The notes below the pieces were generated by a model that searched no databases, was not told the origin of the DNA, and saw nothing but the letters and a program-made list of their open reading frames with translations. Below are positions 6,395 to 31,512 of a stretch of DNA of 32,000 nucleotides, piece after piece (the first letter of the stretch is position 1; each line of letters begins with the position of its first letter). Source of the DNA: an uncultured Thermodesulfobacteriota bacterium (lineage in GTDB: Bacteria; Desulfobacterota; B13-G15); contig CAZGDM010000017.1 of the NCBI GenBank assembly GCA_964525275.1, forward strand, positions 835 to 32,834. The letters run 5' to 3'. A program made the translations under genes and the position numbers.

Positions 6395-6397
6395 AGG

Positions 6398-15152: not shown

Positions 15153-15619
15153 AGAAGAAAGGGTTAATCGCAGTAATCGCCTTGCTCCTCATGGCAACAC
15201 CCCTCTGGGCAGGATGGCCTTCGGGACCAAAGGGGCGCCGGTGGAAGGACTTCGAGATGCTGAGGATGTGGAGGCTGACGGAGGAACTCGATCTCTCCGA
15301 AGAGGAGGCCGCCAAGGTCTTTCCGCTTCTTAAGCGTTACAGCCAAAAGAGGCGGGATCTACAGCTCAAGCGACGCAAGCTCCTCAGGGAACTGCAGGAG
15401 CTGTTGGATGAGGGTGCCACGAGGGAGAGGCTCTCGGAGAAGATGGGCGAGATCGAAAAGGTTATGCGAGAACTGGAGGAAACCCGATGGGAGGAATGGG
15501 AAAGACTCAAGGACATCCTCCCCCCTCGAAAGCAGGCCCGTTATCTCCTGTTTCACCATCGCTTCGTAAAAGACCTGTGGCGCATCATGAGGAAACCGGG
15601 GGAGCCTCCTCCAAGGTAG
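15149..15619 (+). CDS. Secreted coiled-coil periplasmic protein, Spy/CpxP/heavy-metal-sensor-like (LTxxQ-type)
   Basis: I place the start at ATG 15149 (ATGA overlap with the anti-sigma stop), not at the 15023 of the track. Signal peptide MKKKGLIAVIALLLMATPLWAG. Charged helical repeats with LTEELDL / LPPRKQARYLLF motifs. Confidence 0.65.
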   Translation: MKKKGLIAVIALLLMATPLWAGWPSGPKGRRWKDFEMLRMWRLTEELDLSEEEAAKVFPLLKRYSQKRRDLQLKRRKLLRELQELLDEGATRERLSEKMGEIEKVMRELEETRWEEWERLKDILPPRKQARYLLFHHRFVKDLWRIMRKPGEPPPR

Positions 15620-16256
15620 CCACCAACGTCACCACCTCCCGGAGGGAGGAGAGGAGATGGTCTGGCCCCATGTCCTCCAGCTCCTCCCTCCCCCCCTCCC
15701 CTCCTAAGACCAGAGCCACTGGAACACCGACGGCCCGTGCAGCTTGAAGGTCTGAGGGACTGTCGCCCACAAAGAGGGCCTCGCGGGGGCTCGAACCGAG
15801 GATCCTGAGGCACCTCCTCAACCCCTCTGGATCCGGCTTGAGGAACCTCACATCTTCTCTCGTGATCACCACGTCCAAAAACCTCCGCAACCCCAGGCGG
15901 AGGAGGGCTTCTTCCGCTGCACGCCCTACATTGGTCACCACCCCGAGTCCTATCCCTTCTCCACGCAGGACTTCGAGGACCTCCTGGGATCCGTCCCTGG
16001 GCGACCAACGCTTGAGGGCGTCCTGATCATACCGATCGTAGACCTCGCCCAACTGCCCCATCACCCGAGGTAAGCGCTCCGGGGGAGAGAGCCTGATGGC
16101 CCGGTTCCAAAGGCGAGCGTAGTTGTCCCCTTTGAAGTCCTCAAGGTCAAAGCCCAGGGCCTCAAGGCGGGATCTCAACTCCGCCTCGGCCTCCTCGAGC
16201 CGCCATTGGAAGTCCACCAGGGTCCCCTCAAAGTCGAAGATCACGGCCTTGAGCAC
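15585..16256 (-). CDS. HAD-superfamily hydrolase with variant motif I (DFEGT)
   Basis: Has VIFDFEGTLVD, GVVTNVGR and FVGDSPSDLQAARAVG. I prefer GTG at 16256, which has a ggaggg SD 8 nt upstream. The 59-aa N-terminal extension of track ORF 15585..16433 has no HAD-like content. Start is uncertain. Confidence 0.7.
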   Translation of the reverse strand: MLKAVIFDFEGTLVDFQWRLEEAEAELRSRLEALGFDLEDFKGDNYARLWNRAIRLSPPERLPRVMGQLGEVYDRYDQDALKRWSPRDGSQEVLEVLRGEGIGLGVVTNVGRAAEEALLRLGLRRFLDVVITREDVRFLKPDPEGLRRCLRILGSSPREALFVGDSPSDLQAARAVGVPVALVLGGEGGREELEDMGPDHLLSSLREVVTLVATLEEAPPVSS

Positions 16257-18734: not shown

Positions 18735-19310
18735 TCACCGACGGGGCCATCCCTCCCAGCGGCGGAAGAGCTTTGCGTCGAGGCCGAACAGATCCAGGAC
18801 CTTCCCTACGGTGTGATCGACGATGTCCTCGAGCGACTTCGGGGAGTGGTAAAAGGCGGGTACAGGCGGCATGATCACTGCCCCCATCCGAGTCGCTCTG
18901 GCCATGAGCTCAAGATGGCCCAGATGCAGCGGCGTCTCCCGCACCAAGAGCACGAGCCTCCTTCTTTCCTTCAGGGTTACATCGGCAGCCCTCACCAGGA
19001 GGTTGTCGTTGTAGGAGTTGGCGATGGCCGAAAGGGTCTTGATGGAACAGGGCGCAACCACCATGCCCGAAGTGACGAAGGAGCCGCTGGATACGGGGGC
19101 CGCCAGATCCTTTACATCGTGAACCTCATGGGCCAAGCCCTTCACGTCCTCTACCGTGAGGGAGGTCTCTATCTGGATGTTCTTCTGGGCCGCCTCGGTG
19201 AGGATCAAATGGGCCTCGACCTTCAGATCCCTCAATACCTCAAGCAGCCGTATGCCGTATATGACACCGGAGGCACCGGTGATCCCTACGATGATTCGAC
19301 CTATCTTCAT
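18735..19310 (-). CDS. ubiX: Flavin prenyltransferase UbiX (prFMN synthase)
   Basis: Has RIIVGITGASGVIYGIRLLEVL, MVVAPCSIKTLSAIANS and LVLLVRETPL. 191 aa. Starts 1 nt after the upstream stop. Confidence 0.9.
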   Translation of the reverse strand: MKIGRIIVGITGASGVIYGIRLLEVLRDLKVEAHLILTEAAQKNIQIETSLTVEDVKGLAHEVHDVKDLAAPVSSGSFVTSGMVVAPCSIKTLSAIANSYNDNLLVRAADVTLKERRRLVLLVRETPLHLGHLELMARATRMGAVIMPPVPAFYHSPKSLEDIVDHTVGKVLDLFGLDAKLFRRWEGWPRR

Positions 19311-19311
19311 C

Positions 19312-20532
19312 TTATCCCCCCGACCTTATCATCTCGTCCAGGACCTCCACTGCCCGCCGGGCGAAGGCAGGATCGCTTATATGCACGTCCATCTCCTCCA
19401 CGGGGACGGCGTCCCCGAGAACCTTCTTGAGCTCATCGACGAAGACCTGGTCGGCTTGAGGGTCGAAGAACTCCCTCCCTTCTCTGTCAAATTCGGACCA
19501 TCCCCTCCTGGGGATGAGCACATAGGTCGGTGCTTTGACCTTCCTCAGCTTTTCCCCTACGATCCGTGCAAAGGCCCGCATCTCCTGAGGCCCCATCCGC
19601 ACACAGAACCGCACATCGTAGTGGCACACCTTCCTGCCCTTCAGCAGATCCGGCATGGGACAGGAGGGAGTGAAGGCCGCATTGTCAAGCCCACCAGGGG
19701 CCACGACCCGGGGAACCCCGCCGGCCTCCAATCTCATGGGACCTATACCCTTGCTGTAACCTCCGAACATCTCATCGGCTATTTCGTGAAGGGTGAGATC
19801 GAGCACGCCGACCACAAGCCCCTGCTCGACGAACTCCTCCATGGCCATCCCCCCGCATCCGTTGGCGTGAAAGGCCACCATCTCGTAGCCCTTCGCCTCG
19901 AGGAAGGACTGGGCATGAAGGGCACAGTCAGAGTTGGCACCATAGGCACTCACGGCCACCATGGGCTTGCCTTTGGGCAGTTCGGTCCCCTTTTGCATCA
20001 TCCCGCATACAGCACGGCATGCCTGTCCGAGGATGAGCTTGATGAACTCGTTCATCCCCAGGAGGTCCGCCACCGAGTGAAACATCACCACATCCTTGGT
20101 CCCCACGAACTCCCGCACGTCCCTGGAGGCCACCGTGGAGACCATCACCTTGGGAAGGCCGAAGGGGAGGGAGCGCATGACCCTGGTGGCTATGGTCGTG
20201 CCCGTCCCTCCCCCCATCCCGAATACCCCGTGGATCCTGCCGTCCTCCAACAGGCGGTTGGCCACGATGACCGCACCCTCCGCGATGGCCCGAACGCAGC
20301 TGGCGCGATCCCTGGCCTTGATCAGCCCTTTGAGGTCATAACCTGCGGCAGATGCTACCTCTTCCTTAGTTATATCAGGTGGGATTGAGGGGTCCCCCAG
20401 GATCCCGACATCCATGAGGACGGGCTTGACGCCGAGGGACCTGACGCAATCCCTGACATAGGCGGCGTGCTCTCCCTTGGTGTCGAGGGTGGCGATAACG
20501 AGCAGGGTCTTCCCCCCACTTTCCTCCGACAT
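19312..20532 (-). CDS. UPF0261 / Tm-1-like ATP-binding domain protein, paralogue B
   Basis: Has KTLLVIATLDTKGEHAAYVRD, GMGGGTGTTIAT and LPFGLPKVMVST. I choose ATG 20532 (MSEESGGK...) rather than track start 20595, which would overlap paralogue A. Confidence 0.8.
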   Translation of the reverse strand: MSEESGGKTLLVIATLDTKGEHAAYVRDCVRSLGVKPVLMDVGILGDPSIPPDITKEEVASAAGYDLKGLIKARDRASCVRAIAEGAVIVANRLLEDGRIHGVFGMGGGTGTTIATRVMRSLPFGLPKVMVSTVASRDVREFVGTKDVVMFHSVADLLGMNEFIKLILGQACRAVCGMMQKGTELPKGKPMVAVSAYGANSDCALHAQSFLEAKGYEMVAFHANGCGGMAMEEFVEQGLVVGVLDLTLHEIADEMFGGYSKGIGPMRLEAGGVPRVVAPGGLDNAAFTPSCPMPDLLKGRKVCHYDVRFCVRMGPQEMRAFARIVGEKLRKVKAPTYVLIPRRGWSEFDREGREFFDPQADQVFVDELKKVLGDAVPVEEMDVHISDPAFARRAVEVLDEMIRSGG

Positions 20533-20563
20533 GATCACCGCCTTCCGAAGGGACAGAGGCCCA

Positions 20564-21784
20564 TCAGGACGGGAAGATCCTCCTGCAGGCCTCAAGGACC
20601 GCCTGGGCGAACTCGGGGTCCTCCATGTTGGCCTCCACGGTCTGAAGCTCGATATCGGGCTTGAGCCTCCTCCTCAGTTCCTCCACGAAGACCATATCCT
20701 CTTCGGGGTCGTAAGTGGGATTGCCCGGCTGATCCACGGAGGACCACCCCTTGAGGGGTATGACCACCACCACGGGGCCCCGAGCCTTGTTGAGCTTTTC
20801 AGCAAAGGCCCGGGCGGCCTCAATGAGCTCTTCCTTTGAGGCCCTCAGCCATGTGCGGTGTCGATCCAGGTCATATCTGCGCCTCGACCTGTGCTCCTCC
20901 GTCCAGGCCTTTTTGGGCGGGGTGATGTGGTTCACCCCACAGGTTGAGACCACCTGAGGAATCCCCACCTCACCTGCGGCCTCAAGCCTCGTGGGCCCGG
21001 CATCCCTCATCCCCCCCACCAGGTGCTCTATCACCCCACCGGGGGCGAGGTCCACCACCGCATCGAAGAGCCCCTGGCGGATCATCTCCTCCATGGCCCG
21101 GTCACCGATCCCTGCTGCGGAAAACCCCGTGACCTGAAAGCCTCCCTCCTCGAGGCCTCGCCTCACCCTGCTTGCACACTTCTCACACGGCCCGAGCATG
21201 GTCATGGCCACTGCCCTGCCCTCGGCCCTCTGAACCCGAAGGGGTGGAGTCTCGACCATGGCGCAGATGGCACGTGCTGCCCGCTCGATGACGTTCCTGA
21301 GGACCTCGCCAAGCCCCGATATCTCCACCACGGAGTGAAAGAGGCAGATGTCCCCTGTGCCTATGTAACGGGTGGACATCCCGGGAAGGGCCGCGGTGGA
21401 GGAGATCATGAGCTTGGGAAGGCCGAAGGGCAAGGCCCTCATGACATCTGTGGCCATCAACGACCCCGTGGACCCCCCGATGCCGACCACCCCGTGGATC
21501 TTTCCCTCGGCTGAGAGCTTCTTAGCGATCTCTATCGCCCCACGGGTCATCACGGCGGTAGACTGGGCGCGCTCCCTGGAGGAACGGATCTCCTCGAGGG
21601 TGCTACCCCCGGCCCGAGCCACCTCCTCCGCGGTGATATCGGCCTCTTTGCAAAGGAGCCCTTCCCTCATGGAGATGTCCATCAGGAGGACCTCACATCC
21701 GAGGTCACTGATCCTCTCCTTCAGGAAAAGGGCCTCCTCACCCTTGGTGTCGAGGGTCGCCACAAGAAGCACAGTCTTCCCCAT
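20564..21784 (-). CDS. UPF0261 / Tm-1-like ATP-binding domain protein, paralogue A
   Basis: Has MGKTVLLVATLDTKGEEALFLKE, GIGGSTGSLMAT and LPFGLPKLMISST. Collinear with paralogue B along the whole length. 406 aa. Confidence 0.8.
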   Translation of the reverse strand: MGKTVLLVATLDTKGEEALFLKERISDLGCEVLLMDISMREGLLCKEADITAEEVARAGGSTLEEIRSSRERAQSTAVMTRGAIEIAKKLSAEGKIHGVVGIGGSTGSLMATDVMRALPFGLPKLMISSTAALPGMSTRYIGTGDICLFHSVVEISGLGEVLRNVIERAARAICAMVETPPLRVQRAEGRAVAMTMLGPCEKCASRVRRGLEEGGFQVTGFSAAGIGDRAMEEMIRQGLFDAVVDLAPGGVIEHLVGGMRDAGPTRLEAAGEVGIPQVVSTCGVNHITPPKKAWTEEHRSRRRYDLDRHRTWLRASKEELIEAARAFAEKLNKARGPVVVVIPLKGWSSVDQPGNPTYDPEEDMVFVEELRRRLKPDIELQTVEANMEDPEFAQAVLEACRRIFPS

Positions 21785-21798
21785 CTCGGCCTCCGCAA

Positions 21799-21836
21799 AG
21801 GCCGATGGGGGAGCAGGGCTCCCCCACGGTCGGCCT
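21799..21836 (-). other. Compound intercistronic stem-loop between the ligase and UPF0261-A genes
   Basis: Inner stem is gggggagc-agg-gctccccc (21807-21825). Outer stem is aggccga/tcggcct (21799-21805 with 21830-21836). It lies 3 nt after the ligase stop. No long U-tract follows. Confidence 0.5.
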
Positions 21837-21839
21837 TGG

Positions 21840-23492
21840 CTATTTTGCCTCTTCGGCTATCTTCTTCTCGAGCTCGGCCCTGAGGACCTTCTTGTCGATC
21901 TTGCCGGAGTCCCCCACGGTGGGAAGCGCATCCACCACCTCGAGGCGCTCGGGAAGTTTGAACTTGGCGAGCTTCTTCTCGAGCAGAAACTCGGTGATCT
22001 CCTCCAAGGTGATGGTCTCTCCCGGCCGAAGCACCACGAAGGCACAGGCCCGCTCCCCCATCTCCTTGTCGGGGTAGCCCACGACGGCCACGCTCTTGAT
22101 CTTGGGGTGCTCCTGAAGCAGCCCCTCTATCTCCGCGGGGTAGATGTTCTGGCCGCCGCGGATGATCATGTCCTTGGCCCGGCCCATGATCCATAGGCAC
22201 CCTTGGTCCCACTTGACGATGTCGCCCGTGGTGGCCCATCCCTGGGGGTCGAAGACCGTGGCGGTCTTCTCGGGATCGCGGTAGTAGCCCGCCGGCGAAT
22301 GCGGCCCCCGGAACCAGAGCTGACCTGGCTCCCCTTCGGGGACCTCCTTGCCCTTGTCGTCGAGGAGTCTGATCTGATTGCCCGGCAGGGGCCTGCCCAC
22401 GGTCCTTCGTCTGAGCTCGGGCGGATCGTCCACCCGGCAGCCGGAGATGGACCCCACGTCCTGGGTGCCCAGGTCGCTTGTGATCACCCCTCCCAGGCGT
22501 CTCTCGGCTTCCTCGGCCACATCCGGAGCGAGGTAACCACCGGCAGAGCGGATGAACCTCAAGGAGCTCAGGTCGTACTGCTCCACGGGCTTCTCGAGCA
22601 TCCTCACCAGGTGGGTGGGGACCACGCCGATACAGGTGCCCCGCTCCCTCTGGATCAGCTCCAGGGCCCCCTCCGGGGTGAACTCCTCAAGGAGCACCGT
22701 CTTCGCCCCCACCAAGGGCGCGGCGAAGTAGGTCAAGGTCCCCCCGGCCCCGCCGGCAAAGGGGGCGATGGCCACGGTGATGTCGTCACCGGTGAGCTTC
22801 CAGATGTCCACCCTGGCCTTGGCGGTGCAGAGCCTGGGGGCGATGTTCCACTCAACGAGCTTGGGCAGACCAGTGGTCCCCGTGGTGCTGGTGAGCATGG
22901 CCACATCGGTGAAGGGGTTGAAGCGCCGCCCATCCAGGGCCTTCAGCTCCGCTGGGGGGACCTCCTCGTTGGCGAGCTGTATGAGGGAATAGGTCCCCTC
23001 CGGGGCCCCCGCGGGCACCTCCTCGGTGAGGAGGAAGATGTATTTGAATTTCGGCGAAAGCCCCTTGAGCTCCTGGAACATCTCCAGGTAGTTGAACTTG
23101 CGGTAGATGTAAGGGCAGACCACCGCGGAGGCCTGGGTGGTCTCTATCATGTAGGAGAGCTCCCTGTGGCGCATGTAGGCGTAAACGGTAAGGGAGATGA
23201 GGCCTGCCCTTTCGGCGGCGATCCTGGCCAAAAATGCATAGACCTCGTTTGGGGCCTGGATGATGATCCGGTCGTCTTTCTCCAACCCCATCTCCGCCCA
23301 ACGGTAGGCGATCCTGTCCACCAGCTCCACCGCTTGGGCCCAGGTGACCCTGTATCGGGAGTCGGCCAGGGCCTCGCGGTCCGGACGCTCCTCGGCGTTT
23401 TTGGCCCAGAAGTCGTAGAAGGTCTCGTCAGTCCAGTAACCCTTTCCCCTGAATTCCTCGATCATCTCATCGGTGTACCTGATGACCCTCAT
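21840..23492 (-). CDS. ANL-superfamily AMP-forming acyl/aryl-CoA ligase (EntE/DhbE-like N-terminus)
   Basis: Has TSTTGTTGLPKLV (A3), TGDIVKWDQGCLWIMGRAKDMIIRGGQNIYPAEIE (A8) and the C-terminal GKIDKK lysine (A10). The N-terminal FRGKGYW pattern resembles aryl-acid adenylating enzymes. Confidence 0.85.
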   Translation of the reverse strand: MRVIRYTDEMIEEFRGKGYWTDETFYDFWAKNAEERPDREALADSRYRVTWAQAVELVDRIAYRWAEMGLEKDDRIIIQAPNEVYAFLARIAAERAGLISLTVYAYMRHRELSYMIETTQASAVVCPYIYRKFNYLEMFQELKGLSPKFKYIFLLTEEVPAGAPEGTYSLIQLANEEVPPAELKALDGRRFNPFTDVAMLTSTTGTTGLPKLVEWNIAPRLCTAKARVDIWKLTGDDITVAIAPFAGGAGGTLTYFAAPLVGAKTVLLEEFTPEGALELIQRERGTCIGVVPTHLVRMLEKPVEQYDLSSLRFIRSAGGYLAPDVAEEAERRLGGVITSDLGTQDVGSISGCRVDDPPELRRRTVGRPLPGNQIRLLDDKGKEVPEGEPGQLWFRGPHSPAGYYRDPEKTATVFDPQGWATTGDIVKWDQGCLWIMGRAKDMIIRGGQNIYPAEIEGLLQEHPKIKSVAVVGYPDKEMGERACAFVVLRPGETITLEEITEFLLEKKLAKFKLPERLEVVDALPTVGDSGKIDKKVLRAELEKKIAEEAK

Positions 23493-23516
23493 TTATTCCA
23501 CCTCCCTTCCTTTTGC

Positions 23517-24938
23517 TCAGTCGAGTCCCAGCTCTCCCCAGCGTTCCCTGACCCTCTTGACCATCTCCTCGTCGAGGAAGATCTCCTCGGGCTTCCGCTC
23601 CCACTCGTAGGGGATGGTGGCATCGAGGATGATCTTTGAAGCGATGTCCCTCGCGTCTATGGGCAGCGCAGGGTCCAGAGGCGTGGAACGGGCCCGTTTG
23701 ATGATCTCCGTGCTCCTCCAGGGGTCGTACCTCACGCTCAAGGCCCACCAGACGCGATCCAGGTCGTCGGCCTTTATGTCCTCGTCCACCACGATGACCC
23801 CCTTCATCCCGTAGTGGCCCGTGGTGGTGGCATGGGCTGCCATCGCCGCATGGATCGAGTGCCCGGGGTACATGGTCTTAAGGGATATTATAGCCCAGAA
23901 CCTCCCCGTGGTCTGGGGCGGGATGAAGACCGACCTGATCCCCGGCACCCTCATCGTCTCGAGTTCCGTCCAGAGGGTGGCAGTCCTGTTCAGGGACTGA
24001 ATCATGTGGGTGTCGGTGACGGGTTTGCCCACCGTGGTAACCCAGAAAATAGGATCCTTCCTCATGTAGATCCGCTTAACATGCAACACCTGTTTGGGCC
24101 ACTCCTCACCGCGTTTCCCGGAGTAATAACCCGTGTACTCCCCGAAGGGACCCTCCTCCCTCAGGTCCTTCGGGTCGATGAACCCCTCAAGGATGATCTC
24201 CGCATGGGCAGGCAGAGGCAGCCCGGTGAGCTCCCCCTCGAAGACCTCGATTGGCTCTCCCCTCAGGGCCCCGGCCACGTCGTATTCGCTCACCTGGGCG
24301 GGCACCAGAGTGCTCGAGCAGAGGAAGAGGATGGGATCGCAGCCGATAACCGCCGCAGCCGGCATCAGCTTCCCCGCCTTCTCGTACTGCTTGAAGTGCA
24401 TGTCGGCGTGTTTCCCCTTGATGATCTGCACCCCGGTATGGTTCCGATCGTGGACCATCATCCGGTAAGTACCCAGGTTCACCCACCCCGTCTCCAGGTC
24501 CTTGGTGATCAGGAAAACTGCCGTTCCGATATACCTTCCCCCATCTTTTGGATAGATATAGGGGACGGGGAAGTCCCTGAGAAGGTCTATGGCGTCCTCC
24601 TCCACTACCTGCTCGGTAACAGGGCCCGAGGGGACCTCTTTGGGCTTGATCAGCCCCTTCTCGGTTATCACCTTCATCCACCAGCGGGCCATCTCGCACA
24701 TCGAGGTCCCGGGCTTAACTCCCAGGGTTATGGCCAGCCGTTTCTCACTGGTCAGGGCGGAGGTGAGCACGGGGATGCTGTAGTCCTTGACGTTCTCAAA
24801 GAGCAGCGCCGGTCCCTTCCTCTCCTCGTTCAGTTTGGCGATATGGGAGAGCTCCAAGTTCCAGTCCACCTGGGCCTTGATCCTCTTCAACTCCCCTTCC
24901 CTCTCGCAGGCTGCAATCCACTCCCTCAGATCCTTCAT
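23517..24938 (-). CDS. UbiD-family prFMN-dependent (de)carboxylase, phenylphosphate-carboxylase-like size (473 aa)
   Basis: Has MKDLREWIAACEREGELKRI, GPALLFENV, GGRYIGT and GPFGEYTGYY (conserved Glu motif). Co-operonic with ubiX. Confidence 0.85.
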   Translation of the reverse strand: MKDLREWIAACEREGELKRIKAQVDWNLELSHIAKLNEERKGPALLFENVKDYSIPVLTSALTSEKRLAITLGVKPGTSMCEMARWWMKVITEKGLIKPKEVPSGPVTEQVVEEDAIDLLRDFPVPYIYPKDGGRYIGTAVFLITKDLETGWVNLGTYRMMVHDRNHTGVQIIKGKHADMHFKQYEKAGKLMPAAAVIGCDPILFLCSSTLVPAQVSEYDVAGALRGEPIEVFEGELTGLPLPAHAEIILEGFIDPKDLREEGPFGEYTGYYSGKRGEEWPKQVLHVKRIYMRKDPIFWVTTVGKPVTDTHMIQSLNRTATLWTELETMRVPGIRSVFIPPQTTGRFWAIISLKTMYPGHSIHAAMAAHATTTGHYGMKGVIVVDEDIKADDLDRVWWALSVRYDPWRSTEIIKRARSTPLDPALPIDARDIASKIILDATIPYEWERKPEEIFLDEEMVKRVRERWGELGLD

Positions 24939-24967
24939 CCTTCACCTCCTCTTTTTTGGGATTTTGC

Positions 24968-24987
24968 GGGGTGACGGGGATCACCCC
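24968..24987 (-). other. Small intercistronic hairpin overlapping the ppsB-like stop codon
   Basis: ggggtga-cgggga-tcacccc (7-bp stem, 6-nt loop). An A-rich stretch rather than a U-rich stretch follows on the mRNA. Confidence 0.4.
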
Positions 24988-26051
24988 TTGGGCACCTTTA
25001 TCCTCGTCATGGCCCGCTCCATGAGGAGCTCAAAGCCGGACTTTTTGCCGAGCACAGGACCCTTCCGCTTCTGGCTCCACACGGTCTCCGGACGACTCTG
25101 GACGATGAAGATGTTCTCGGGGAAGGGAATTCCCCGATCTATAGACCACTCGATATCCTGGGGACATCCGTAGTAGTCCTCGATCTTCCGAGCCAGGGAA
25201 GCCAGTTCCCTCACCTCCTCGTCTTCGAGGCATCGCACCTGCTGAAGCTCCTCGGGGACCTCGGCATGGACCACCTCTCTCCGCTCCGGGTCGAAGACGC
25301 ACTGCACGGTCTTGGGGGAAACGGTGCAGGAGATCTCCCCGGTGACCTTATCCACCACGAAGCGGTCGGGGGTAACCTCGCCGGAGACCACCGCCTCCCC
25401 GAATCCCCAACTGCCCTCGATCACGACCTTGGAGGGATCGCCGGTGGTGGGGTCGAGGGTGAACATCACGCCCGCGGCCTTGGCGTCCACCATCTTCTGG
25501 ACCCCTACGCTGATGAGGACCTTCTCATGGGGAAATCCCATTTTTATCCGGTAAGCGATGGCCCGGGGGGTGAAGAGGCTCGACCAGCACTGAAGCACTC
25601 GCTTGAGGACCTCATCTTGCCCCCTCACCCAGAGGTAGGTCTCCTGCTGGCCGGCAAAGCTCGCCGTGGGGAGGTCTTCAGCAGTGGCGCTGGAACGGAC
25701 GGCTACGGGTAAATCCTCCATCTCCACCCTGGAGCAGAGTTCACGATAGGCCTCCACAATCGCCCTCTTCACCCCTTCGGGTACTTGGGCCTCCTCGATG
25801 GCCCGGCGGATTGCGGCGCTCGCCCTCTGGAGGGCCTCGGTATCCTCCGCGCTTATCCCAGCCAGGGCCTCATCGATCCGCTCCCTGAGCCCGGTCGCCT
25901 CGATGAAGCTTTGATAAGCCTCAGTGGTCACAGCGAACCCGGGGGGCACCTTAACCCCCGCCTTCATCAGCTCGCCGAGGCTCGCGTTCTTCCCCCCCAC
26001 CTGACCTATGAGGTCCTTGCCCACCTCTTCGAACCACAAAATGAACGCCAT
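24981..26051 (-). CDS. PEP-synthase N-terminal ATP-grasp (PPDK_N) protein, phenylphosphate synthase beta (PpsB)-like
   Basis: 356 aa (about 40 kDa). VGGKNASLGELMKAGVKVPPGFAVTTEAY is the nucleotide-binding domain of water dikinases. There is no swivel-His domain in this polypeptide. Confidence 0.8.
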   Translation of the reverse strand: MAFILWFEEVGKDLIGQVGGKNASLGELMKAGVKVPPGFAVTTEAYQSFIEATGLRERIDEALAGISAEDTEALQRASAAIRRAIEEAQVPEGVKRAIVEAYRELCSRVEMEDLPVAVRSSATAEDLPTASFAGQQETYLWVRGQDEVLKRVLQCWSSLFTPRAIAYRIKMGFPHEKVLISVGVQKMVDAKAAGVMFTLDPTTGDPSKVVIEGSWGFGEAVVSGEVTPDRFVVDKVTGEISCTVSPKTVQCVFDPERREVVHAEVPEELQQVRCLEDEEVRELASLARKIEDYYGCPQDIEWSIDRGIPFPENIFIVQSRPETVWSQKRKGPVLGKKSGFELLMERAMTRIKVPKG

Positions 26052-26065
26052 TGCCTCCCCTCCCT

Positions 26066-26091
26066 GGCCCCCCGGCTGGAGCCGGGGGGCC
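26066..26091 (-). other. Intercistronic GC-only hairpin (11-bp stem, 4-nt loop) between the ppsA-like and ppsB-like genes
   Basis: ggccccccggc-tgga-gccggggggcc, a perfect complement. The ppsB-like SD gggaggggagg follows directly on the mRNA. Confidence 0.6.
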
Positions 26092-26100
26092 TTGCTCTCA

Positions 26101-27951
26101 TCAGGCCTCCGCCCTTTTGACGATCTTCACCACGCCGTTGTCTCCATCTACGCGGATGATGTCACCAGTCCTTATCACCTGGGTGGCTACACCGGTCCCC
26201 GTAACCGACGGCAGGCCGTATTCACGGCACACGATGGCCGCGTGGCTGGTAAGGCCTCCGATGTCGGTGACCGCCGCCTTGATCTTCGTGAACACCGGCG
26301 CCCAGGACGGATTGGTGGTGGGACATACCAGGATCTCGCCCGGCTCGATGGTGTTGACCTCCTCCAGTAGCTTTATCACCCTGGCCTTGCCCTCCACCAC
26401 GCCGGCAGAGGCCGCAAAGCCCTTGAGCTCGGTGACCTCCTCTGGCGTAACGGTCACGCCCTTCAGCCACTCGTTGACCTTCTCAGAGGTAATGCCCCAG
26501 AGCATCACAGTGAAAGGCTCGGCGATCTCCTCGGGCACGGTCCCCAAGGCAGGCGGCGGTGCCCACTTCTTGGCGGCCTCGAGGATCCTCTGGCGCTTGG
26601 CGGCCTTCTCCTGCCAGTACTTACCCCTGTGCGGCACCCCCTCGCCCAGGGCCCAGGAGGTCACCAGGTCCTCAAGCAGGTAGGGGACCTCGAAGCGGTT
26701 GAAGAGGAAGATGTCGTCCACTTCCTTCAGCATCCCGTACTTCACCAGCACCCTGCCGAATTCCCGCATCTTTTCAAAGACGATGGTGTGGAACCAGTGC
26801 TCCACCCAGAACAGGTGATCTTCTGCGTAGCGATAGATGGTGCGGCAGGTCTTGTAGGCGTCATCGAAGGTCTTGCGATCCTCGTCGGTCTTTATGAGCT
26901 TGCGGTACTCCTCAACCAGCCTGTCCCTTTCGGCCTCGATCTCCTCTAAATATCGCTCGATCCTTTCGCCCTTCTCAAGCCTCTCCACATAGCTCTTCAA
27001 GTAGCCGAAGGGGACATCGAGCTTGTTTATCCAGCTTCCCTCATAGTGGAACCAGCCGCTACCACAGGAGACGAAAAACCACGGGTCCTTTCTCTTCTCG
27101 AAGGACTCGAGCCACTCCCTCCCCTCGGGGAAGGTCTTGAGTCGTTCGATCTTCTCGGAGGCAGGGGCGTCGCTCTTCAGTATCTCCTTCACCTGGGGCA
27201 GGGTGTAGGCGAGGCGGGCGAGCTTACAGAGCTCCTCCTCGGGCCTGAACATCACCACATAGGCCCCGGCCACCATCTTCCCGATGGTGCTTTCGCTGAT
27301 CCCTGGGAACAGCTTCCGACAGGTGTCGGCGAACATCAGGTAGGCCAGATAGGAGAGGTTCAGGTACTCGAAGTGATACTGCCATGCCTTGTAAATGGCG
27401 TCTATCAGCCTGTCATAGGCCTCGATCAGCTCATAAGAGGTGTAATACCCCTTCGGGGCGGGGAAGACCCCCTCATCGGGCTCGAACTGCGGCAACTCTT
27501 TGGGGATTTTTATCTCTTCAACTTCGCGGCCAAGGGCCGTGAACTTCTTGTGCCACTGCTCCCAAAGCTCATCGTAATGCTCGAAGACGTAAAAAACCCG
27601 CTTCTGGAAGAGCTCGGCCTTCTTCTGCACTATGTCCTCCGGCGGAGGCTCCACGGCGCAGATGTACATGTAACAACCGACCATCCTCTGGGCCACGCCC
27701 TGCGCTGGGGGGATGCAGAACACACGGGTGTTGTACTGCGACAGGGCGATCTGCCACGCCTCTTGAAAGATCAGGTCCCAGGGATACATGGGATCGGGGG
27801 CGTGGATCTTGTCGTGATACCAGAACTGCCGTTCTTCCCAATCCTTCCGGTCCTCGCTGAAGATGTAATAGGGGGGATACATCTCCTCCCACCCCTCAAG
27901 CTCAGGCGGATACTCCACCTCTAAAGGTTTGGGGAAACCTCCTTGTGCCAT
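26101..27951 (-). CDS. PEP-utilising-enzyme swivel-His protein with a large N-terminal substrate domain, phenylphosphate synthase alpha (PpsA)-like
   Basis: 616 aa (about 70 kDa). The C-terminal mobile domain is GEILVCPTTNPSWAPVFTKIKAAVTDIGGLTSHAAIVCREYGLPSV, containing the catalytic His. The N-terminal 500 aa is unlike the PEP/pyruvate TIM barrel. Confidence 0.8.
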   Translation of the reverse strand: MAQGGFPKPLEVEYPPELEGWEEMYPPYYIFSEDRKDWEERQFWYHDKIHAPDPMYPWDLIFQEAWQIALSQYNTRVFCIPPAQGVAQRMVGCYMYICAVEPPPEDIVQKKAELFQKRVFYVFEHYDELWEQWHKKFTALGREVEEIKIPKELPQFEPDEGVFPAPKGYYTSYELIEAYDRLIDAIYKAWQYHFEYLNLSYLAYLMFADTCRKLFPGISESTIGKMVAGAYVVMFRPEEELCKLARLAYTLPQVKEILKSDAPASEKIERLKTFPEGREWLESFEKRKDPWFFVSCGSGWFHYEGSWINKLDVPFGYLKSYVERLEKGERIERYLEEIEAERDRLVEEYRKLIKTDEDRKTFDDAYKTCRTIYRYAEDHLFWVEHWFHTIVFEKMREFGRVLVKYGMLKEVDDIFLFNRFEVPYLLEDLVTSWALGEGVPHRGKYWQEKAAKRQRILEAAKKWAPPPALGTVPEEIAEPFTVMLWGITSEKVNEWLKGVTVTPEEVTELKGFAASAGVVEGKARVIKLLEEVNTIEPGEILVCPTTNPSWAPVFTKIKAAVTDIGGLTSHAAIVCREYGLPSVTGTGVATQVIRTGDIIRVDGDNGVVKIVKRAEA

Positions 27952-28230: not shown

Positions 28231-29679
28231 ATGAGGGAATTCTCCAATAGAGAGATCACCTGGGATCACTTAATATTGGGACTGAAAAAGACCACCAGGG
28301 ATTTCCTGGAGAACGTCCTTCAGAACATCATAGATTCCATCGTCGTGACGGACCTGAGCGGGAGGATCATTTTCTTCAACAGGTTTTCAGAGGAGCTCTT
28401 TCGGTACCGGGCGGAGGAGGTCTTAGGGCGTCATATCTCCATCCTCGGGGCGAAGCGTCCCAACGTACTCGAAAGGATTAGGCAAGGCAAGACCTTCCGT
28501 GGCGAAATCGTCCTCAAGACGAAGGACGGAAGGGCTTTCCCCGCGCGGGTGGTCTGCGTCCCCATTAGCGATGAAAACAACCTCCCCATAGGTATGGTGG
28601 GGGTGGCAAGGGATATCACCGAGGAAAAGCGACAGCAAGAAGAAAAGAGGTTTCTCCAGAGGCAGCTGCAAGAGCTACAGAGGCGTCTTTCCCAGAGCTC
28701 GCTATACGGGGACATCGTGGGCACCAGTGAGGCCATGCTCAAGATCTACGCTCTGATGGAGAAGGTAGCCCCCCTGGACTGCAACGTCCTCATAGTGGGG
28801 GAAAGTGGCACTGGGAAAGAATTGATCGCGAGGGCTATCCATAACAAAAGCCCCAGGAAAGACCATCCCTTCGTTATAGCAGATTGTGCCCTCCTGTCCG
28901 CAGGACTTCTCGAATCGGAGCTCTTCGGCTACGAAAAGGGGGCCTTCACAGGGGCCTACACCAGGAAGAGGGGTTATTTCGAAGTGGCCGACGGAGGTAC
29001 CCTCTTCTTGGACGAGATCGGGGATCTCCCTCTTGAAGTCCAGGGAAAACTCCTCAGGGCAGTGCAAGAGCGGGTGATCTTCCGGGTAGGTGGGGTAGAT
29101 CCTATAAAGGTCGACGCCCGGATAATAGCCGCCACCAACCAAGATCTGGAGGAAAAGGTCAAGAGGAAACAGTTTCGAGAAGACCTCTATTATAGGTTGA
29201 GCGTAGTAACCATTAAGGTCCCCCCTCTCAGGGAGAGGAAAGAGGACATCCCCCTATTGACCACCTACTTCCTCAACAAATATGCGGCCAGATTCGGCAA
29301 AAGGGTCGAGATGAAACAGGAAGTTTACGACGCCTTTCGCAAATACCCCTGGCCGGGAAATGTGAGGGAACTGGAAAACCTCATCCAAAATTTGCTGATC
29401 GTATCTGGGGGCGATACCGTCTGTCTTAGAGACCTTCCCCCTAAGATACTGGCCCATCTGAAACCATCGCCCTTAGATATGCCCCCCCACAGTTACGGGG
29501 AGATGAAAAGGAAGGTGGTGGATGACTTCACGAGGAATTTCCTCACCACCATGCTGAAGAAAAACAGGGGAAATGTGAGCAAAACGGCCAGAGAGATCCG
29601 CCTCCGCAGGACCTCCCTGCAGCGGTTAATGAGGAAATACGGCATCCGATCCGCCGATTTCCGCAATCAGCCTCTTTAA
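28231..29679 (+). CDS. Sigma54-dependent transcriptional activator: PAS sensor, AAA+ domain, Fis-type HTH
   Basis: PAS ([18 protein letters not shown]...[10 protein letters not shown]), Walker [15 protein letters not shown] loop (EKGAFTGAY), [10 protein letters not shown], and the C-terminal [29 protein letters not shown]. No receiver domain. Confidence 0.92.
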
Positions 29680-29803: not shown

Positions 29804-29819
29804 TGGCAGGGATTTTGCC
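29804..29819 (+). promoter_or_regulatory. Sigma54 (-24/-12) promoter TGGCAGGGATTTTGCC
   Basis: TGGCAG at 29804-29809 and TTGC at 29815-29818 have the exact GG-N10-GC spacing of the TGGCAC-N5-TTGC consensus. The element lies about 33 nt upstream of the moaD-like ATG and immediately downstream of a sigma54 activator gene. Confidence 0.7.
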
Positions 29820-29851: not shown

Positions 29852-30109
29852 ATGAAGATAAAGGTGCGCATGGGGTATGAGGAGAGGGCTTTGGAGTTGC
29901 CCGAAGGCAGCACCGTGGGGGAGTTGTTGGTCCATCTGTCATCCGCCTCGGGACGACAAGAGACTTCGGAGTTCTTCGACAACAAAGGGAGGCTTTACCC
30001 TGATTGTCAGGTCATCGTAAACGGGCTCTTCAAGACTGCAGAACCGCAGGAGGAGCTCAAGGACGGCGATCACGTGGAGATCGACCGTATTGTGATAGCC
30101 GGCGGTTAG
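29852..30109 (+). CDS. MoaD/ThiS-family ubiquitin-like beta-grasp protein with C-terminal Gly-Gly
   Basis: 85 aa, ending ...LKDGDHVEIDRIVIAGG followed by the stop. The LPEGSTVGELL pattern is typical of MoaD/ThiS sulfur carriers. Confidence 0.75.
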   Translation: MKIKVRMGYEERALELPEGSTVGELLVHLSSASGRQETSEFFDNKGRLYPDCQVIVNGLFKTAEPQEELKDGDHVEIDRIVIAGG

Positions 30110-30136: not shown

Positions 30137-31036
30137 ATGGAAGGGCTGGGGTATCTACTGGCACTGCCGAGGTTTGAATACTTCTCGCCCAAGACTGTCG
30201 AGGAGGCCTGTTCCCTGCTCGAGCGCTACGGCCGGGAGGCGAAGCTCTTAGCGGGAGGTACCGATTTGCTGGTGGCCATGAAAAAGGGGAAGGAATCACC
30301 CCGTTATCTGATCGGCATAAAGGCCCTTTCCGGTCTGGACTTCATAGAGTACGACGGAGAACTGTTGAGGATTGGGGCCCTGGCGACCTTACAGTCGGTG
30401 GCCGATGCAGCAATAGTCCAGGAGCGGTTCGGCCTCCTGGCCACGGCGTGCAGAAAAGTGGGAACCCCCCAGGTGCGAAATATGGGGACCCTGGTGGGCA
30501 ACATCTGTAACGCTGGCCCCTCCCAGGACACCGTCCCCTCGCTGCTCGTGTTGGGGGCGAAAGTAAAGGCGGTGAGCAGCAAAGGGGAGAGGACCATCCC
30601 TTTAGAAGGTTTCTTCCGCGGCCCCTTCGAGACGGTCCTCGAGGATGGGGAGATGGTTACAGAGGTCCAGATCCCGACCCCTCCGCCCCACAGCGCAGGT
30701 TGCTATCGGTGGATGACCAAGAGGACCACAGTGGATGAGACCCTGGTGGGGGTGGCCGTGTTGGTAGTGGCGGACCCCACCCATGAACGCTGCGAGGACG
30801 CAAGGATTGCCCTCTGTTCGGTGGCCCCTACCCCCTTCAGGGCGAAGAGGGCAGAGGCACTCCTTCGGGGAAAGGAGATCGACGAAGGGTTATTGGAGGA
30901 GGTGGGACGCACAGCCGCCGAGGAGACGAGGCCCCGGGGCAGGGCGGAGTACAGAAAGCTCCTCACCTCTCTCTTGGTCAAGAAGGCCCTGACCGAGGGG
31001 TGGAAAAACCTCACAGGGCAGGAGGTAACGGCATGA
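30137..31036 (+). CDS. FAD-binding medium subunit of a xanthine dehydrogenase / CO dehydrogenase-family molybdoenzyme
   Basis: Has FEYFSPKTVEEACSLL, AKLLAGGTDLLVAMK and GTPQVRNMGTLVGNICNAGPSQD. Strong aaggaggggg SD. 299 aa. Confidence 0.88.
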   Translation: MEGLGYLLALPRFEYFSPKTVEEACSLLERYGREAKLLAGGTDLLVAMKKGKESPRYLIGIKALSGLDFIEYDGELLRIGALATLQSVADAAIVQERFGLLATACRKVGTPQVRNMGTLVGNICNAGPSQDTVPSLLVLGAKVKAVSSKGERTIPLEGFFRGPFETVLEDGEMVTEVQIPTPPPHSAGCYRWMTKRTTVDETLVGVAVLVVADPTHERCEDARIALCSVAPTPFRAKRAEALLRGKEIDEGLLEEVGRTAAEETRPRGRAEYRKLLTSLLVKKALTEGWKNLTGQEVTA

Positions 31037-31512
31037 AGCGTGTGATCAGCCTCACTGTAAACGGGGAGACCCATGAGGTGGTGGTGGAACCACGGACGAC
31101 CCTTCTGGAGGTCCTAAGGGACTCCTTGGGACTCACGGGGGCAAAGGAGGGCTGCAGCCTGGGAAACTGCGGGGCCTGTACCGTGTTGCTTGACGGAAAG
31201 CCCGTCCTGTCCTGTTTGTTGCTCGCCGTGGAGGCCCAGGGCAAGGAGATCGTCACCATCGAGGGGCTGGCCGAGGGGGGTAAGCTCCACCCCCTCCAGG
31301 AGGCCTTCGTGGAGCACGGCGCCGTGCAGTGCGGTTTCTGCATCCCAGGGATGATCCTTTCCGCCAAGGCCTTCCTCGATGAAAACCCCCACCCCACCGA
31401 GGAGGAAGTCAAGGAGGCCATATCGGGCAACCTCTGTCGCTGTACGGGCTACAGTGACGCCGTCAGGGCCATCCTCGCGGCGGCAAAGGCGAAGGAGGAA
31501 GGGGAGAGATGA
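31033..31512 (+). CDS. [2Fe-2S]x2 small subunit of a xanthine dehydrogenase-family molybdoenzyme
   Basis: I place the start at ATG 31033 (ATGA overlap with the FAD subunit stop). Motifs: EGCSLGNCGACTV, QCGFCIPGM, NLCRCTGY. Confidence 0.9.
   Translation: MKRVISLTVNGETHEVVVEPRTTLLEVLRDSLGLTGAKEGCSLGNCGACTVLLDGKPVLSCLLLAVEAQGKEIVTIEGLAEGGKLHPLQEAFVEHGAVQCGFCIPGMILSAKAFLDENPHPTEEEVKEAISGNLCRCTGYSDAVRAILAAAKAKEEGER

Follow-up and report, generated by a model that had tools for sequence, protein, structure and literature searches.

The 32,000-nucleotide stretch of DNA analyzed here, referred to as the window, is part of contig CAZGDM010000017.1 (assembly GCA_964525275.1) of an uncultured Thermodesulfobacteriota bacterium. 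A scan for open reading frames (ORFs) identified seven consecutive genes at positions 18735–27951, all on the minus strand and separated by gaps of 49, 42, 24, 55, 31, and 1 nucleotides (Table 1). The gap values presuppose that the second of two UPF0261 genes starts at ATG 20532 (MSEESGGK...), with the TTG at 20595, which lies upstream, left unused. In the order of transcription, the operon encodes a PpsA-like and a PpsB-like subunit of a split aryl dikinase, a UbiD-family enzyme of the PpcB type, an ANL ligase, two UPF0261 proteins, and the flavin prenyltransferase UbiX, and it belongs to the phenylphosphate synthase (Pps) and phenylphosphate carboxylase (Ppc) type. The first-pass annotation of this DNA had described seven packed genes with gaps of 1–55 nucleotides, and its reading frames, gaps, and gene families were confirmed. 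The motifs that it had cited, GGLTSHAAIV, GGKNASLGEL, and GPFGEYTGYY, are all present in the encoded proteins, and profile searches assigned the UbiD, UbiX, PPDK_N, PEP-utilizers, and UPF0261 families as expected.

Core enzymes of the operon

The genes of the two dikinase subunits lie side by side, 49 nucleotides apart, and the predicted masses of their products (Table 1) agree with the split into approximately 70-kDa and 40-kDa subunits that had been recognized at first reading. The PpsA-like protein contains a swivel domain formed by residues 535–606, which is its only Pfam domain, and His570 is positioned inside the motif GGLTSHAAIV. The protein scored 949 bits with the NF006153 model, the cutoff of which is 578 bits. 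It is 60–75% identical to the products of PpsA genes that adjoin PpcB genes in related loci (L003, L005, L016, L031, L059, and L078; loci are numbered with the prefix L) and 43–50% identical to those of the Geobacter and Burkholderiales type. The PpsB-like protein contains a PPDK_N domain (E = 1.9e-122) with the motif GGKNASLGEL at residue 19, and it aligns with the N-terminal third of phosphoenolpyruvate (PEP) synthase models.

The UbiD-family protein passes the equivalog model for the phenylphosphate carboxylase beta subunit (TIGR02724, phenyl_P_beta) with a score of 594.7 bits, above the cutoff of 468.95 bits. Its scores are under the cutoffs of the models of the alpha subunit PpcA (TIGR02723, phenyl_P_alpha; 189 versus 565 bits), VdcC (301 versus 650), UbiD proper (227 versus 788), and menaquinone decarboxylase (297 versus 496), and no further UbiD model reached its cutoff. 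The best sequence match in the Protein Data Bank (PDB) is the UbiD-family decarboxylase 7PDA (E = 2e-79). The motif GPFGEYTGYY is located at residue 263. Residues N154, R159, H177, E218, E262, and E267 are invariant among 21 homologues, and, matching them by spacing, we take them to be the equivalents of N168, R173, H191, E233, E277, and E282 of Fdc1, which belong to the metal, prenylated flavin mononucleotide (prFMN), and catalytic sites. A tblastn search of the 32-kb window did not find a second UbiD homologue, in agreement with the single UbiD reported earlier. The lack of a CBS-domain PpsC, which had also been noticed, was reproduced, since no CBS domain was detected among the window ORFs scanned, and a tblastn search of the window with the CBS protein of Geobacter was empty. 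The window also contains no LpdD-type chaperone, small response regulator, or counterpart of the 215-residue unknown ORF of Syntrophorhabdaceae clusters.

The closest solved structures to the ANL ligase are 2,3-dihydroxybenzoate-AMP and salicylate-AMP ligases (E = 1e-77 to 1e-70). The gene order UbiD–ANL–UPF0261 is kept in L002, L003, L005, L009, L010, L014, L015, L018, L019, L023, L024, L083, L087, and L088. The UbiX gene starts one nucleotide past the preceding gene, and its product scored 274.7 bits with NF004685 (cutoff 188) and 261.5 bits with TIGR00421. UbiX is predicted to supply prFMN to the UbiD enzyme of the operon.

Conservation of the gene cluster

To collect related loci, genomes were scanned, one for each species, with aligned PpcB-like proteins, and the 80 best loci (L007–L086) were retained. 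Homologues of every window protein were then located within the 80 loci. The counts refer to the 51 loci with at least 4.5 kb of sequence upstream and at least 4 kb downstream of the UbiD gene. Genes of PpsA and PpsB lie near the UbiD gene in 48 of the 51 loci, and those of UbiX and of UPF0261 in 47 each (approximately 90% for UPF0261). A sigma-54 activator gene is present in 31 loci, an ANL ligase gene in 14, and a HAD gene in 12. A second UbiD-family gene of any kind was found in one locus (L019), and its product is, according to NCBIfam, a menaquinone-pathway decarboxylase and not PpcA. A single PpcB is the majority form among the surveyed loci. The association of PpsAB with PpcB, together with the TIGR02724 score, bears out the initial description of the operon as a phosphorylation, carboxylation, and CoA-activation unit of the Pps/Ppc kind.

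In the survey of gene neighborhoods, the order of the genes was met again in several lineages, among them Bacillota, Syntrophorhabdaceae, and Desulfatiglandales. The Syntrophorhabdaceae-type loci L003, L004, L087, and L088 contain the full parts list of the window: PpsA, PpsB, UbiD, the ANL ligase, two UPF0261 proteins of clades A and C (defined below), UbiX, and a trio of FAD, iron–sulfur, and molybdenum subunits. For the L087 protein, the collection has index entries in 307 blocks. In these loci, the clade A gene follows that of the ANL ligase, and the clade C gene follows that of PpsB. Identities to the window proteins are 71% for PpsA, 74% for the ANL ligase, 66% and 57–58% for the UPF0261 proteins, 68% for UbiX, and 56% for UbiD. 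The gene order differs from that of the window (UbiD–ANL–UPF–HCR–x–PpsA–PpsB–UPF–LpdD–UbiX, where HCR denotes genes similar to those of 4-hydroxybenzoyl-CoA reductase), and, unlike the window, these loci encode an LpdD-type prFMN chaperone and a LysR regulator. The gene of the LpdD-type prFMNH2 chaperone lies between those of the clade C UPF0261 protein and UbiX (L003 19949–20326, L087 19580–19927, and L088 19936–20340). The Desulfatiglandales metagenome-assembled genome (MAG) L005 contains the same gene set with one UPF0261 gene. Two actinobacterial loci, L059 (Actinomycetota MAG) and L069 (Gaiellales MAG), have tandem PpsA/PpsB pairs upstream of one PpcB–UPF0261 unit; one pair is 54–60% and the other approximately 27% identical to the proteins of the window. 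A phenol-type and an aniline-type dikinase may feed one carboxylase in these organisms.

Comparison with known systems

The phe cluster of Desulfatiglans anilini (H567DRAFT_02049–02059; Xie & Muller 2018, PMC6114531) and the window have in common Pps-alpha, Pps-beta, a single Ppc-beta, a DhbE-like ANL ligase, UPF0261 (02057), UbiX (02056), and HCR-like FAD, iron–sulfur, and molybdenum subunits. According to the published account, phe encodes Ppc-beta2, a DhbE-like ligase whose function is given as unknown, UPF0261, UbiX, and the HCR-like subunits (PMC6114531), and the ligase is annotated as '2,3-dihydroxybenzoate-AMP ligase'. A second UPF0261 protein (clade C), an ADP-forming acyl-CoA synthetase, a HAD hydrolase, and apparent thermophily distinguish the window from phe, whereas a PaaK-type ligase (02049) and a small response regulator occur in phe alone. 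The phe cluster and the aniline (ani) cluster of D. anilini were compared with the window by proxy and not by their own sequences: L005 has a phe-like gene content, and L068 is the only surveyed locus with the ani gene order. D. anilini is not represented among the 80 best PpcB loci, and 240 proteins compared with the published lengths and masses of H567DRAFT_02057, 02058, 02059, 03869, 03870, and 03872 gave no match. The proteins of the proxy L005 are 55–68% identical to those of the window.

The pps-ppc cluster of Geobacter metallireducens (Gmet_2100–2102 and adjoining genes; Butler 2007, PMC1924859; Schleinitz 2009 via PMC6114531) shares PpsA, PpsB, PpcB, a UbiX-like gene, and a sigma-54 activator with the window. 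A UPF0261 gene directly follows ppcB in the Geobacter and Geotalea loci L046, L051, L055, and L056. Unlike the window, Geobacter has a CBS-domain PpsC-like gene, a clade B UPF0261 protein (Lys16 replaced by Arg, His219 kept), and no ANL ligase in the operon. The Geobacter proteins are 44–48% (PpsA), 60% (UbiD), and 39% (UPF0261) identical to those of the window.

The first-pass annotation regarded the inventory of the operon as non-canonical and possibly streamlined. This view did not hold, as the PpcB-only form has been published for G. metallireducens, D. anilini, and Syntrophorhabdus. G. metallireducens has only the ppc-beta homologue (PMC6114531). The phe cluster likewise contains only ppc-beta, the best matches to PpcA and PpsC lie outside the cluster, and the D. 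anilini genome contains no homologue of the phosphatase-type Ppc subunit (PMC6114531). PpsAB and PpcB, together with a UbiX-like gene, are reported to be common to Syntrophorhabdus and nitrate, sulfate, and iron reducers (Ju et al. 2018, PMC5946492). Since the same gene set is present in Syntrophorhabdaceae-type and Desulfatiglandales clusters, the single UbiD, the lack of PpsC, and the apparent lack of small Ppc subunits are not peculiarities of the window. The operon is an apparently thermophilic instance of the Pps/Ppc system known from strict anaerobes, probably of the phe type, and not a new kind of system.

The PpsABC and PpcABCD proteins of Thauera aromatica reportedly comprise a His-phosphorylated dikinase followed by a UbiD-family carboxylase that acts on phenylphosphate (Schmeling 2004 and Schuhle & Fuchs 2004, summarized in PMC6114531). 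The phosphorylated histidine of Thauera PpsA occupies the same position (569, compared to 570 in the window). The window differs from Thauera in having one UbiD without a PpcA paralogue, in lacking the CBS protein PpsC, and apparently in lacking KdsC-like and 10-kDa carboxylase subunits, its HAD protein being PGP/PpaX-like. The UPF0261 proteins of the window apparently have no counterpart among the Thauera ORFs in the published comparison with D. anilini.

UPF0261 proteins of the operon

Two proteins of the operon had been described in the first reading as uncharacterized and ATP-binding. The ATP-binding motif is present in both UPF0261 proteins, but the family has had an assigned activity since 2025 (PMC12624787). 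MarK (Saro_1862) from Novosphingobium aromaticivorans is a kinase that converts ATP to ADP and phosphorylates the phenolic hydroxyl of acetovanillone and related aromatic compounds (Hall et al. 2025, PMC12624787), which is the first catalytic activity known for UPF0261 (JBC 2025, PMC12624787). The crystal structure of MarK has been solved (9MPY), and the key residues of the enzyme are Asp14-Thr15-Lys16 for ATP and Gly195, His219, His304, and His348 for the substrate, of which His348 binds the ketone (acetyl) oxygen (PMC12624787). The phenol-binding residues Gly195, His219, and His304 are more than 90% conserved among MarK homologues (PMC12624787).

Both UPF0261 proteins of the window contain the domains PF06792 and PF23189, are approximately 30–34% identical to MarK, and have the same full-length two-domain architecture. 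Full-length matches to 9MPY were obtained with E = 3e-60 for the clade A protein and E = 1.5e-52 for the clade C protein, and the latter also matched Tm-1 (E = 5e-54). The Asp-Thr-Lys motif (ATLDTKGE) and the loop GG(S/G)xG of MarK are retained in both. The equivalents of Gly195, His219, and His304 are Gly, His, and Tyr in the clade C protein and Gly, Ser, and Leu in the clade A protein, so that Gly195 is kept in both, His219 in clade C only, and His304 in neither. His348 is replaced by Val or Phe, which fits substrates without a para carbonyl group. The genomic contexts also differ: MarK participates in aerobic acetovanillone catabolism together with a biotin carboxylase (acvCDEF/hpeCBAD), and the window proteins are encoded next to UbiD and UbiX.

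An alignment and tree of 79 cluster-associated UPF0261 proteins revealed three clades, each with a distinct and internally conserved pocket; when MarK was aligned with the 79 proteins, 47 columns were at least 95% identical across all clades. Clade A proteins, encoded after the ANL ligase, have Ser in place of His219 (Met in the locus with the ani gene order). Clade B proteins, encoded directly after PpcB in Geobacter, Burkholderiales, and Rhodocyclaceae, have Lys16 replaced by Arg and retain His219; this clade is not represented in the window. Clade C proteins, encoded beside PpsB or UbiX, retain both the Asp-Thr-Lys motif and His219. Members of both clade A and clade C are encoded in the window and also in L003, L004, L009, L015, L018, L019, L087, and L088. 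The clade C protein of the window is 57–65% identical to UPF0261 proteins encoded next to PpsB or UbiX in L003, L004, L016, L098, L106, and L155. Clade B was found in L056 (11560–12804) and about 47 other loci. Its members from Geobacter and Geotalea are 79–95% identical to those from the Betaproteobacteria compared (Georgfuchsia, Sulfuritalea, and Rhodocyclaceae), which is far above the conservation of the neighboring PpsA and PpcB toward the window. This level of conservation suggests transfer of the cluster under strong constraint.

Proteomic data on D. anilini contain both of its UPF0261 proteins. The proteins of the phe cluster, UPF0261 included, are more abundant in phenol-grown cells (PMC7500099). 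The value for the phe protein H567DRAFT_02057 is 2.5e9 in phenol cells and at most 5e7 otherwise (supplementary Table_1, PMC7500099), where the phenol condition was assigned from the behavior of the neighboring phe proteins. The ani protein H567DRAFT_03869 was detected only in cells grown with aniline and 4-aminobenzoate, in which the ani proteins are abundant (PMC7500099 supplement). Both genes were drawn as uncharacterized and were not discussed (PMC6114531, PMC7500099). Our literature search found no paper linking "Tm-1-like" or UPF0261 proteins with phenylphosphate, and neither UbiD nor phenylphosphate nor anaerobes are mentioned in the MarK paper. The link between UPF0261 and Pps/Ppc clusters is apparently new to the literature, as far as searched.

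The UPF0261 proteins are likely ATP-using enzymes that form a conserved part of the pathway and are not bystanders. They are probably ADP-forming aryl kinases or phosphotransfer partners. UbiD–UPF0261(–UbiX) units without PpsAB were found in L067, in L011, the upstream flank of which is 3.2 kb, and on a contig from the JGI metagenome 3300075153; they fit a role in which UPF0261 alone supplies the carboxylase. On the 19.2-kb JGI contig, the UbiD protein is 68% identical to that of the window, and the UPF0261–UbiD pair adjoins genes of an MttB-family methyltransferase, a corrinoid protein, and pterin-binding proteins. This locus may serve to demethylate and carboxylate a methoxy- or methylamino-aromatic compound. 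We tentatively raise the possibility, to which we give less than even odds, that UPF0261 proteins are an overlooked, near-universal part of anaerobic phenol and aniline activation, acting as ADP-forming aryl kinases or reversible aryl-phosphate:ADP phosphotransferases together with PpsAB, PpcB, and the aryl-CoA ligase.

The idea that UPF0261 substitutes for PpcA was suggested by L086, the only locus of the first survey with a true PpcA (688 bits with TIGR02723), which has no UPF0261 gene. It was ruled out by PpcA clusters from metagenomes, in which a clade C UPF0261 gene lies beside that of PpsB in all ten loci with covered flanks. The true-PpcA clusters (metagenome loci L098, L099, L106, L149, L155, L157, and L165) consist of PpcB, a gap of approximately 1.4 kb, PpcA, a third, distant UbiD (27–31% identical), and UbiX, with PpsAB genes in divergent orientation. 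Their clade C proteins are 61–65% identical to that of the window, and a further UPF0261 gene is often present downstream.

Proposed pathway

The region likely encodes the upper pathway by which a thermophilic strict anaerobe converts a phenol-type compound to benzoyl-CoA, as a cluster of the phe type. By homology, the PpsB-like subunit would bind ATP and load His570 of the PpsA-like subunit, yielding AMP, phosphate, and an aryl phosphate. The single PpcB-type UbiD enzyme, with prFMN made by UbiX, would carboxylate the aryl phosphate para to the oxygen and free the phosphate, giving 4-hydroxybenzoate. The DhbE-like ANL ligase is expected to form the CoA thioester, instead of or in addition to which the downstream ADP-forming synthetase might act. 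The divergently encoded HCR-like molybdenum enzyme would then reductively remove the ring substituent to produce benzoyl-CoA. The least certain step is that of the UPF0261 proteins, which are most likely ADP-forming aryl kinases with pockets of their own and would make the formation of aryl phosphates cheaper or broader in range. The clade C protein could work in parallel with PpsAB. The clade A protein could work alongside the ligase, and since the phenol-binding histidine is missing from it, its ligand would be another one. The HAD hydrolase possibly handles a phosphorylated intermediate. In D. anilini, phenol and aniline induce the phe and ani clusters, respectively, and recombinant Pas-alpha and Pas-beta phosphorylate both aniline and phenol (PMC6114531, PMC7500099).

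Several observations weigh against the proposed pathway. For PpcB-only systems, phenylphosphate carboxylase activity has never been demonstrated in extracts (PMC6114531), and carboxylation by D. anilini proteins in vitro depended on a pair of UbiD paralogues that separate clusters encode (PMC7500099). A single UbiD is therefore possibly insufficient, and its partner may be encoded outside the window. The choice of phe over ani relies on proxy loci, and for UbiD alone these point the other way (61% identity to L068 compared to 55–56% to L005 and L003). Upstream of the PpsA-like gene, a sigma-54 promoter was searched for without success, and no GG/GC-anchored site there matched at more than six of eleven positions. 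The FAD and iron–sulfur subunits of the molybdenum enzyme score under the cutoffs of the HCR equivalog models, and the FAD subunit is short. The kinase role of UPF0261 is extrapolated from one enzyme, approximately 30–34% identical to the window proteins, and the clade A protein lacks His219 and His304 of MarK. The substrate panel of MarK included phenol, and phosphorylation of phenol itself is not stated in the text of the paper that was consulted (PMC12624787).

Alternative explanations

UPF0261 may instead be part of the carboxylation machinery, binding the aryl phosphate and handing phenolate to PpcB, with transfer of the phosphoryl group to ADP, which would regain one ATP, or with ATP hydrolysis coupled to carboxylation. 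A coupling of the latter kind has been suggested for the ATPase-like subunits of naphthalene carboxylase. Gene order is consistent with such a role, since clade B genes directly follow that of PpcB in about 47 loci and clade A genes follow the PpcB–ANL pair, and the UbiD–UPF0261 units without PpsAB fit it as well. The phosphatase-like Ppc subunit is missing from strict anaerobes, and how they meet the energy demand of phenol activation is recognized as a puzzle (PMC6114531). Since MarK uses the ADP/ATP couple, a reaction in reverse is conceivable on chemical grounds (PMC12624787). However, the contact between UPF0261 and PpcB is conjectural, the clade C gene stands beside that of PpsB in the true-PpcA loci, where replacement of PpcA would have predicted otherwise, and Ppc-beta and Ppc-beta2 of D. 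anilini carboxylated phenylphosphoamidate in vitro without UPF0261 (PMC7500099). We consider this role unlikely.

The cluster could also be an aniline-type system, in which phenylphosphoamidate is converted to 4-aminobenzoate and 4-aminobenzoyl-CoA, followed by reductive deamination by the molybdenum enzyme, as proposed for D. anilini. The parts of the ani cluster resemble those of the window: a sigma-54 regulator (H567DRAFT_03867), Pas-beta, UPF0261, a 549-residue ANL ligase, Pas-alpha, an HCR-like enzyme, and one Ppc-beta of 473 residues, the length of the window UbiD. Moreover, Pas-alpha and Pas-beta accept aniline and phenol alike in vitro (PMC7500099). The ani genes are arranged in the order Pas-beta, UPF0261, ANL, Pas-alpha, Ppc-beta (PMC6114531), which is not that of the window (PpsA–PpsB–UbiD–ANL–UPF–UPF–UbiX). 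The proteins of L068, the locus with the ani order, are 32% (PpsA), 43% (PpsB), 43% (ANL ligase), 42% (UPF0261), and 61% (UbiD) identical to those of the window, whereas the respective values for L005 are 67%, 58%, 68%, 66%, and 55%. For comparison, the identity published for Pps-alpha and Pas-alpha is 26.7%, a level to which the 32% of the L068 PpsA comes close. The clade A pocket of the window, G-P-S-H-T-L-V, matches those of L005 and L003 and not that of L068. The UbiD identities point the opposite way, the window protein being no closer to the phe-like proxies than to L068, and UbiD is thus of no help in choosing between phe and ani. The comparisons with proxy loci favor a phenol-type substrate over an aniline-type one, and an aniline-specific system appears quite improbable.

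Compared with the proposed carboxylation of a phenol-type compound, operation of the cluster in the decarboxylating direction, or on another hydroxy-aromatic compound (catechol, hydroquinone, resorcinol, cresol, or a hydroxyacetophenone-type compound) with three kinases providing a broad range, finds some grounds in the reversibility of UbiD enzymes and in the presence of three kinase types with three different conserved pockets. Phenols of the acetovanillone type are substrates of MarK and of the related AcvAB/HpeHI enzymes (PMC12624787), and the ANL ligase is closest to enzymes that activate dihydroxybenzoate and salicylate. We assign a low probability to this explanation: ATP-consuming kinases adjoining UbiD favor the carboxylation direction, the UbiD protein passes the PpcB equivalog model and not those of the VdcC, AroY, or BsdC type, the ketone ligand His348 is replaced in the window proteins, and a biotin carboxylase of the acv/hpe type was not found among the window ORFs.

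There is practically no chance that an ordinary split PEP synthase or rifampin-type phosphotransferase lies beside UbiD and UbiX of quinone biosynthesis by coincidence, a reading refuted by model scores and linkage: although good scores were obtained for the PpsB-like protein with the N-terminal part of models for PEP synthase and rifampin phosphotransferase, these models stay far under their cutoffs with partial profile coverage, the UbiD protein scores far below the UbiD-proper and menaquinone decarboxylase cutoffs, and PpsA, PpsB, and PpcB are linked in nearly all surveyed loci across many phyla. Since the dikinase is not a PEP synthase, the UbiD protein not a quinone-pathway decarboxylase, and the gene order not confined to the window, the cluster is a Pps/Ppc-type system with a conserved order.

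Genes flanking the operon

The same-strand transcription unit probably extends beyond ubiX into the genes of the ADP-forming acyl-CoA synthetase and the HAD-IA hydrolase (Table 1). The synthetase gene begins 129 nucleotides downstream of ubiX. The best NCBIfam matches of its product, none of which reaches the cutoff, are ADP-forming acetate- and 4-hydroxybutyrate-CoA ligases of archaea, and homologues with approximately 30% identity occur in very few related loci (L046, L112, and L129). Its membership in the operon is doubtful because it is rarely conserved. If the synthetase acts on the aromatic acid, activation would cost less than with the AMP-forming ligase. A scan for intrinsic terminators gave results no better than those for shuffled sequence.

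The first-pass annotation had noted the absence of a phosphatase subunit. None is encoded inside the operon; the second gene downstream, just past the limits given there, is nevertheless a HAD gene of phosphatase type, and the clusters most closely related to the window have one as well. The window HAD protein is 51% identical to that encoded directly after UPF0261 in L002, the closest genome locus. Its best NCBIfam matches are families of the PGP and PpaX types, below cutoff. Models of phenylphosphate carboxylase subunits did not match the window HAD protein at E < 1e-10, and in a non-exhaustive scan of the small window ORFs no KdsC-type or 10-kDa carboxylase subunit was recognized.

The sigma-54-dependent activator gene and the operon of the molybdenum enzyme are oriented divergently from the seven-gene operon. 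The promoter-like site TGGCAGGGATTTTGC sits 33 nucleotides upstream of the ThiS-like/hcr-like operon and is the best GG/GC-anchored match in that intergenic region. The FAD subunit scored 131.7 bits with the HCR beta model (TIGR03195, cutoff 404.55), which it matched in two stretches, and the [2Fe-2S] subunit scored 186 bits with the HCR gamma model (TIGR03193, cutoff 258). The best NCBIfam match of the molybdopterin subunit N-terminus is 4-hydroxybenzoyl-CoA reductase alpha (TIGR03194), with 174.9 bits over the first 140 profile positions. The N-terminus shares 49% identity with the complete L088 subunit, which scored 902 bits with TIGR03194; the molybdopterin subunits of the relatives scored 902–925 bits, below the cutoff of 995. 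Short FAD subunits of 289–299 residues are encoded in the window (30137–31036), L005 (11962–12831), and L088 (11268–12149). Because the HcrB model matches only in two pieces, the short subunits appear to lack the iron–sulfur loop insertion of Thauera HcrB. L003 additionally carries a separate HcrB-like copy of 328 residues. HCR-like enzymes with a short FAD subunit may constitute a distinct reductase subtype.

The fraction of the residues IVYWREL is 0.456 in all window proteins, compared to 0.45 in Geoglobus/Archaeoglobi homologues and 0.40 in Geobacter/Rhodocyclaceae homologues. The host appears to be thermophilic by this composition, as had been proposed from the sequence. Proteins at least 90% identical to those of the window carry Deltaproteobacteria MAG labels. 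The plus strand of the window at 4169–12002 encodes a VTT-domain protein, two PMT_2/ArnT-like glycosyltransferases, a DegT aminotransferase, a GT2 protein, a Gfo/Idh/MocA oxidoreductase, and an LPG_synthase_TM protein. The remaining genes are of glycosyltransferase and cell-envelope types, Sir2, PhoH, and an ECF sigma/anti-sigma pair. The envelope and glycosylation run and the Sir2, PhoH, and ECF genes look ordinary and unrelated to the operon.

Table 1 Features of the operon and its surroundings in the window
Feature	Position	Strand	Domain or model
PpsA-like subunit of split aryl dikinase, 616 residues, 71.8 kDa	26101..27951	-	Pfam PEP-utilizers; NF006153
PpsB-like ATP-binding dikinase subunit, 356 residues, 39.4 kDa	24981..26051	-	Pfam PPDK_N
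PpcB-type UbiD-family prFMN-dependent aryl (de)carboxylase (predicted), 473 residues	23517..24938	-	UbiD_N, UbiD, UbiD_C; TIGR02724
ANL aryl-acid adenylating enzyme / CoA ligase, presumed 4-hydroxybenzoate-CoA ligase, 550 residues	21840..23492	-	AMP-binding + AMP-binding_C
UPF0261 / MarK-family protein, clade A ('ANL-linked'), 406 residues	20564..21784	-	UPF0261 + UPF0261_C
UPF0261 / MarK-family protein, clade C ('PpsB/UbiX-linked'), 406 residues from ATG 20532	19312..20532 (ORF to 20595)	-	UPF0261 + UPF0261_C
UbiX flavin prenyltransferase, 191 residues	18735..19310	-	Pfam Flavoprotein; NF004685, TIGR00421
Fused ADP-forming acyl-CoA synthetase, 711 residues	16470..18605	-	CoA_binding_2, Succ_CoA_lig, ATP-grasp_5
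HAD-IA phosphatase-type hydrolase, ~223 residues from VLKAVIFDFEGT	15585..16256	-	Pfam HAD_2, Hydrolase
Sigma-54-dependent activator with PAS, AAA+, and HTH_8, 482 residues, divergent	28231..29679	+	Pfam
Sigma-54 promoter-like site TGGCAGGGATTTTGC	29804..29818	+	One mismatch to TGGCAC-N5-TTGC; consensus match only
ThiS/ubiquitin-fold protein, 85 residues, first gene of molybdenum-enzyme operon	29852..30109	+	Pfam ThiS, 30 bits; no NCBIfam match
FAD-binding subunit of xanthine-dehydrogenase-family molybdenum enzyme, 299 residues	30137..31036	+	FAD_binding_5 + CO_deh_flav_C
[2Fe-2S] subunit of molybdenum enzyme, 160 residues from MKRVISL...	31030..31512	+	Fer2_2, Fer2; TIGR03193
Molybdopterin subunit N-terminus, HCR-alpha-like, ends at window edge	31509..32000	+	TIGR03194

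Implications for anaerobic phenol activation

Anaerobic phenol breakdown is textbook knowledge, but outside Thauera its carboxylase is not known to have been reconstituted, and the authors of the D. anilini studies found it unclear how a sulfate reducer affords up to four ATP equivalents for these steps. UPF0261 is as tightly tied to PpcB as PpsAB and UbiX are, and it is a candidate for the missing or a cheaper step, which can be tested in the genetically tractable Geobacter. The link of UPF0261 to the cluster bears both on how PpcB-only carboxylases function and on how strict anaerobes pay for phenol activation. If UPF0261 has the near-universal role considered above, the ATP cost of phenol carboxylation would be lower, and the function of PpcB-only systems in iron reducers, sulfate reducers, and syntrophs without the gamma and delta subunits of Thauera could be explained. 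The window would then be a compact, thermostable example with clades A and C in one operon, and its thermostable components could aid the reconstitution of a UbiD-type aryl carboxylase for CO2-fixing biocatalysis.

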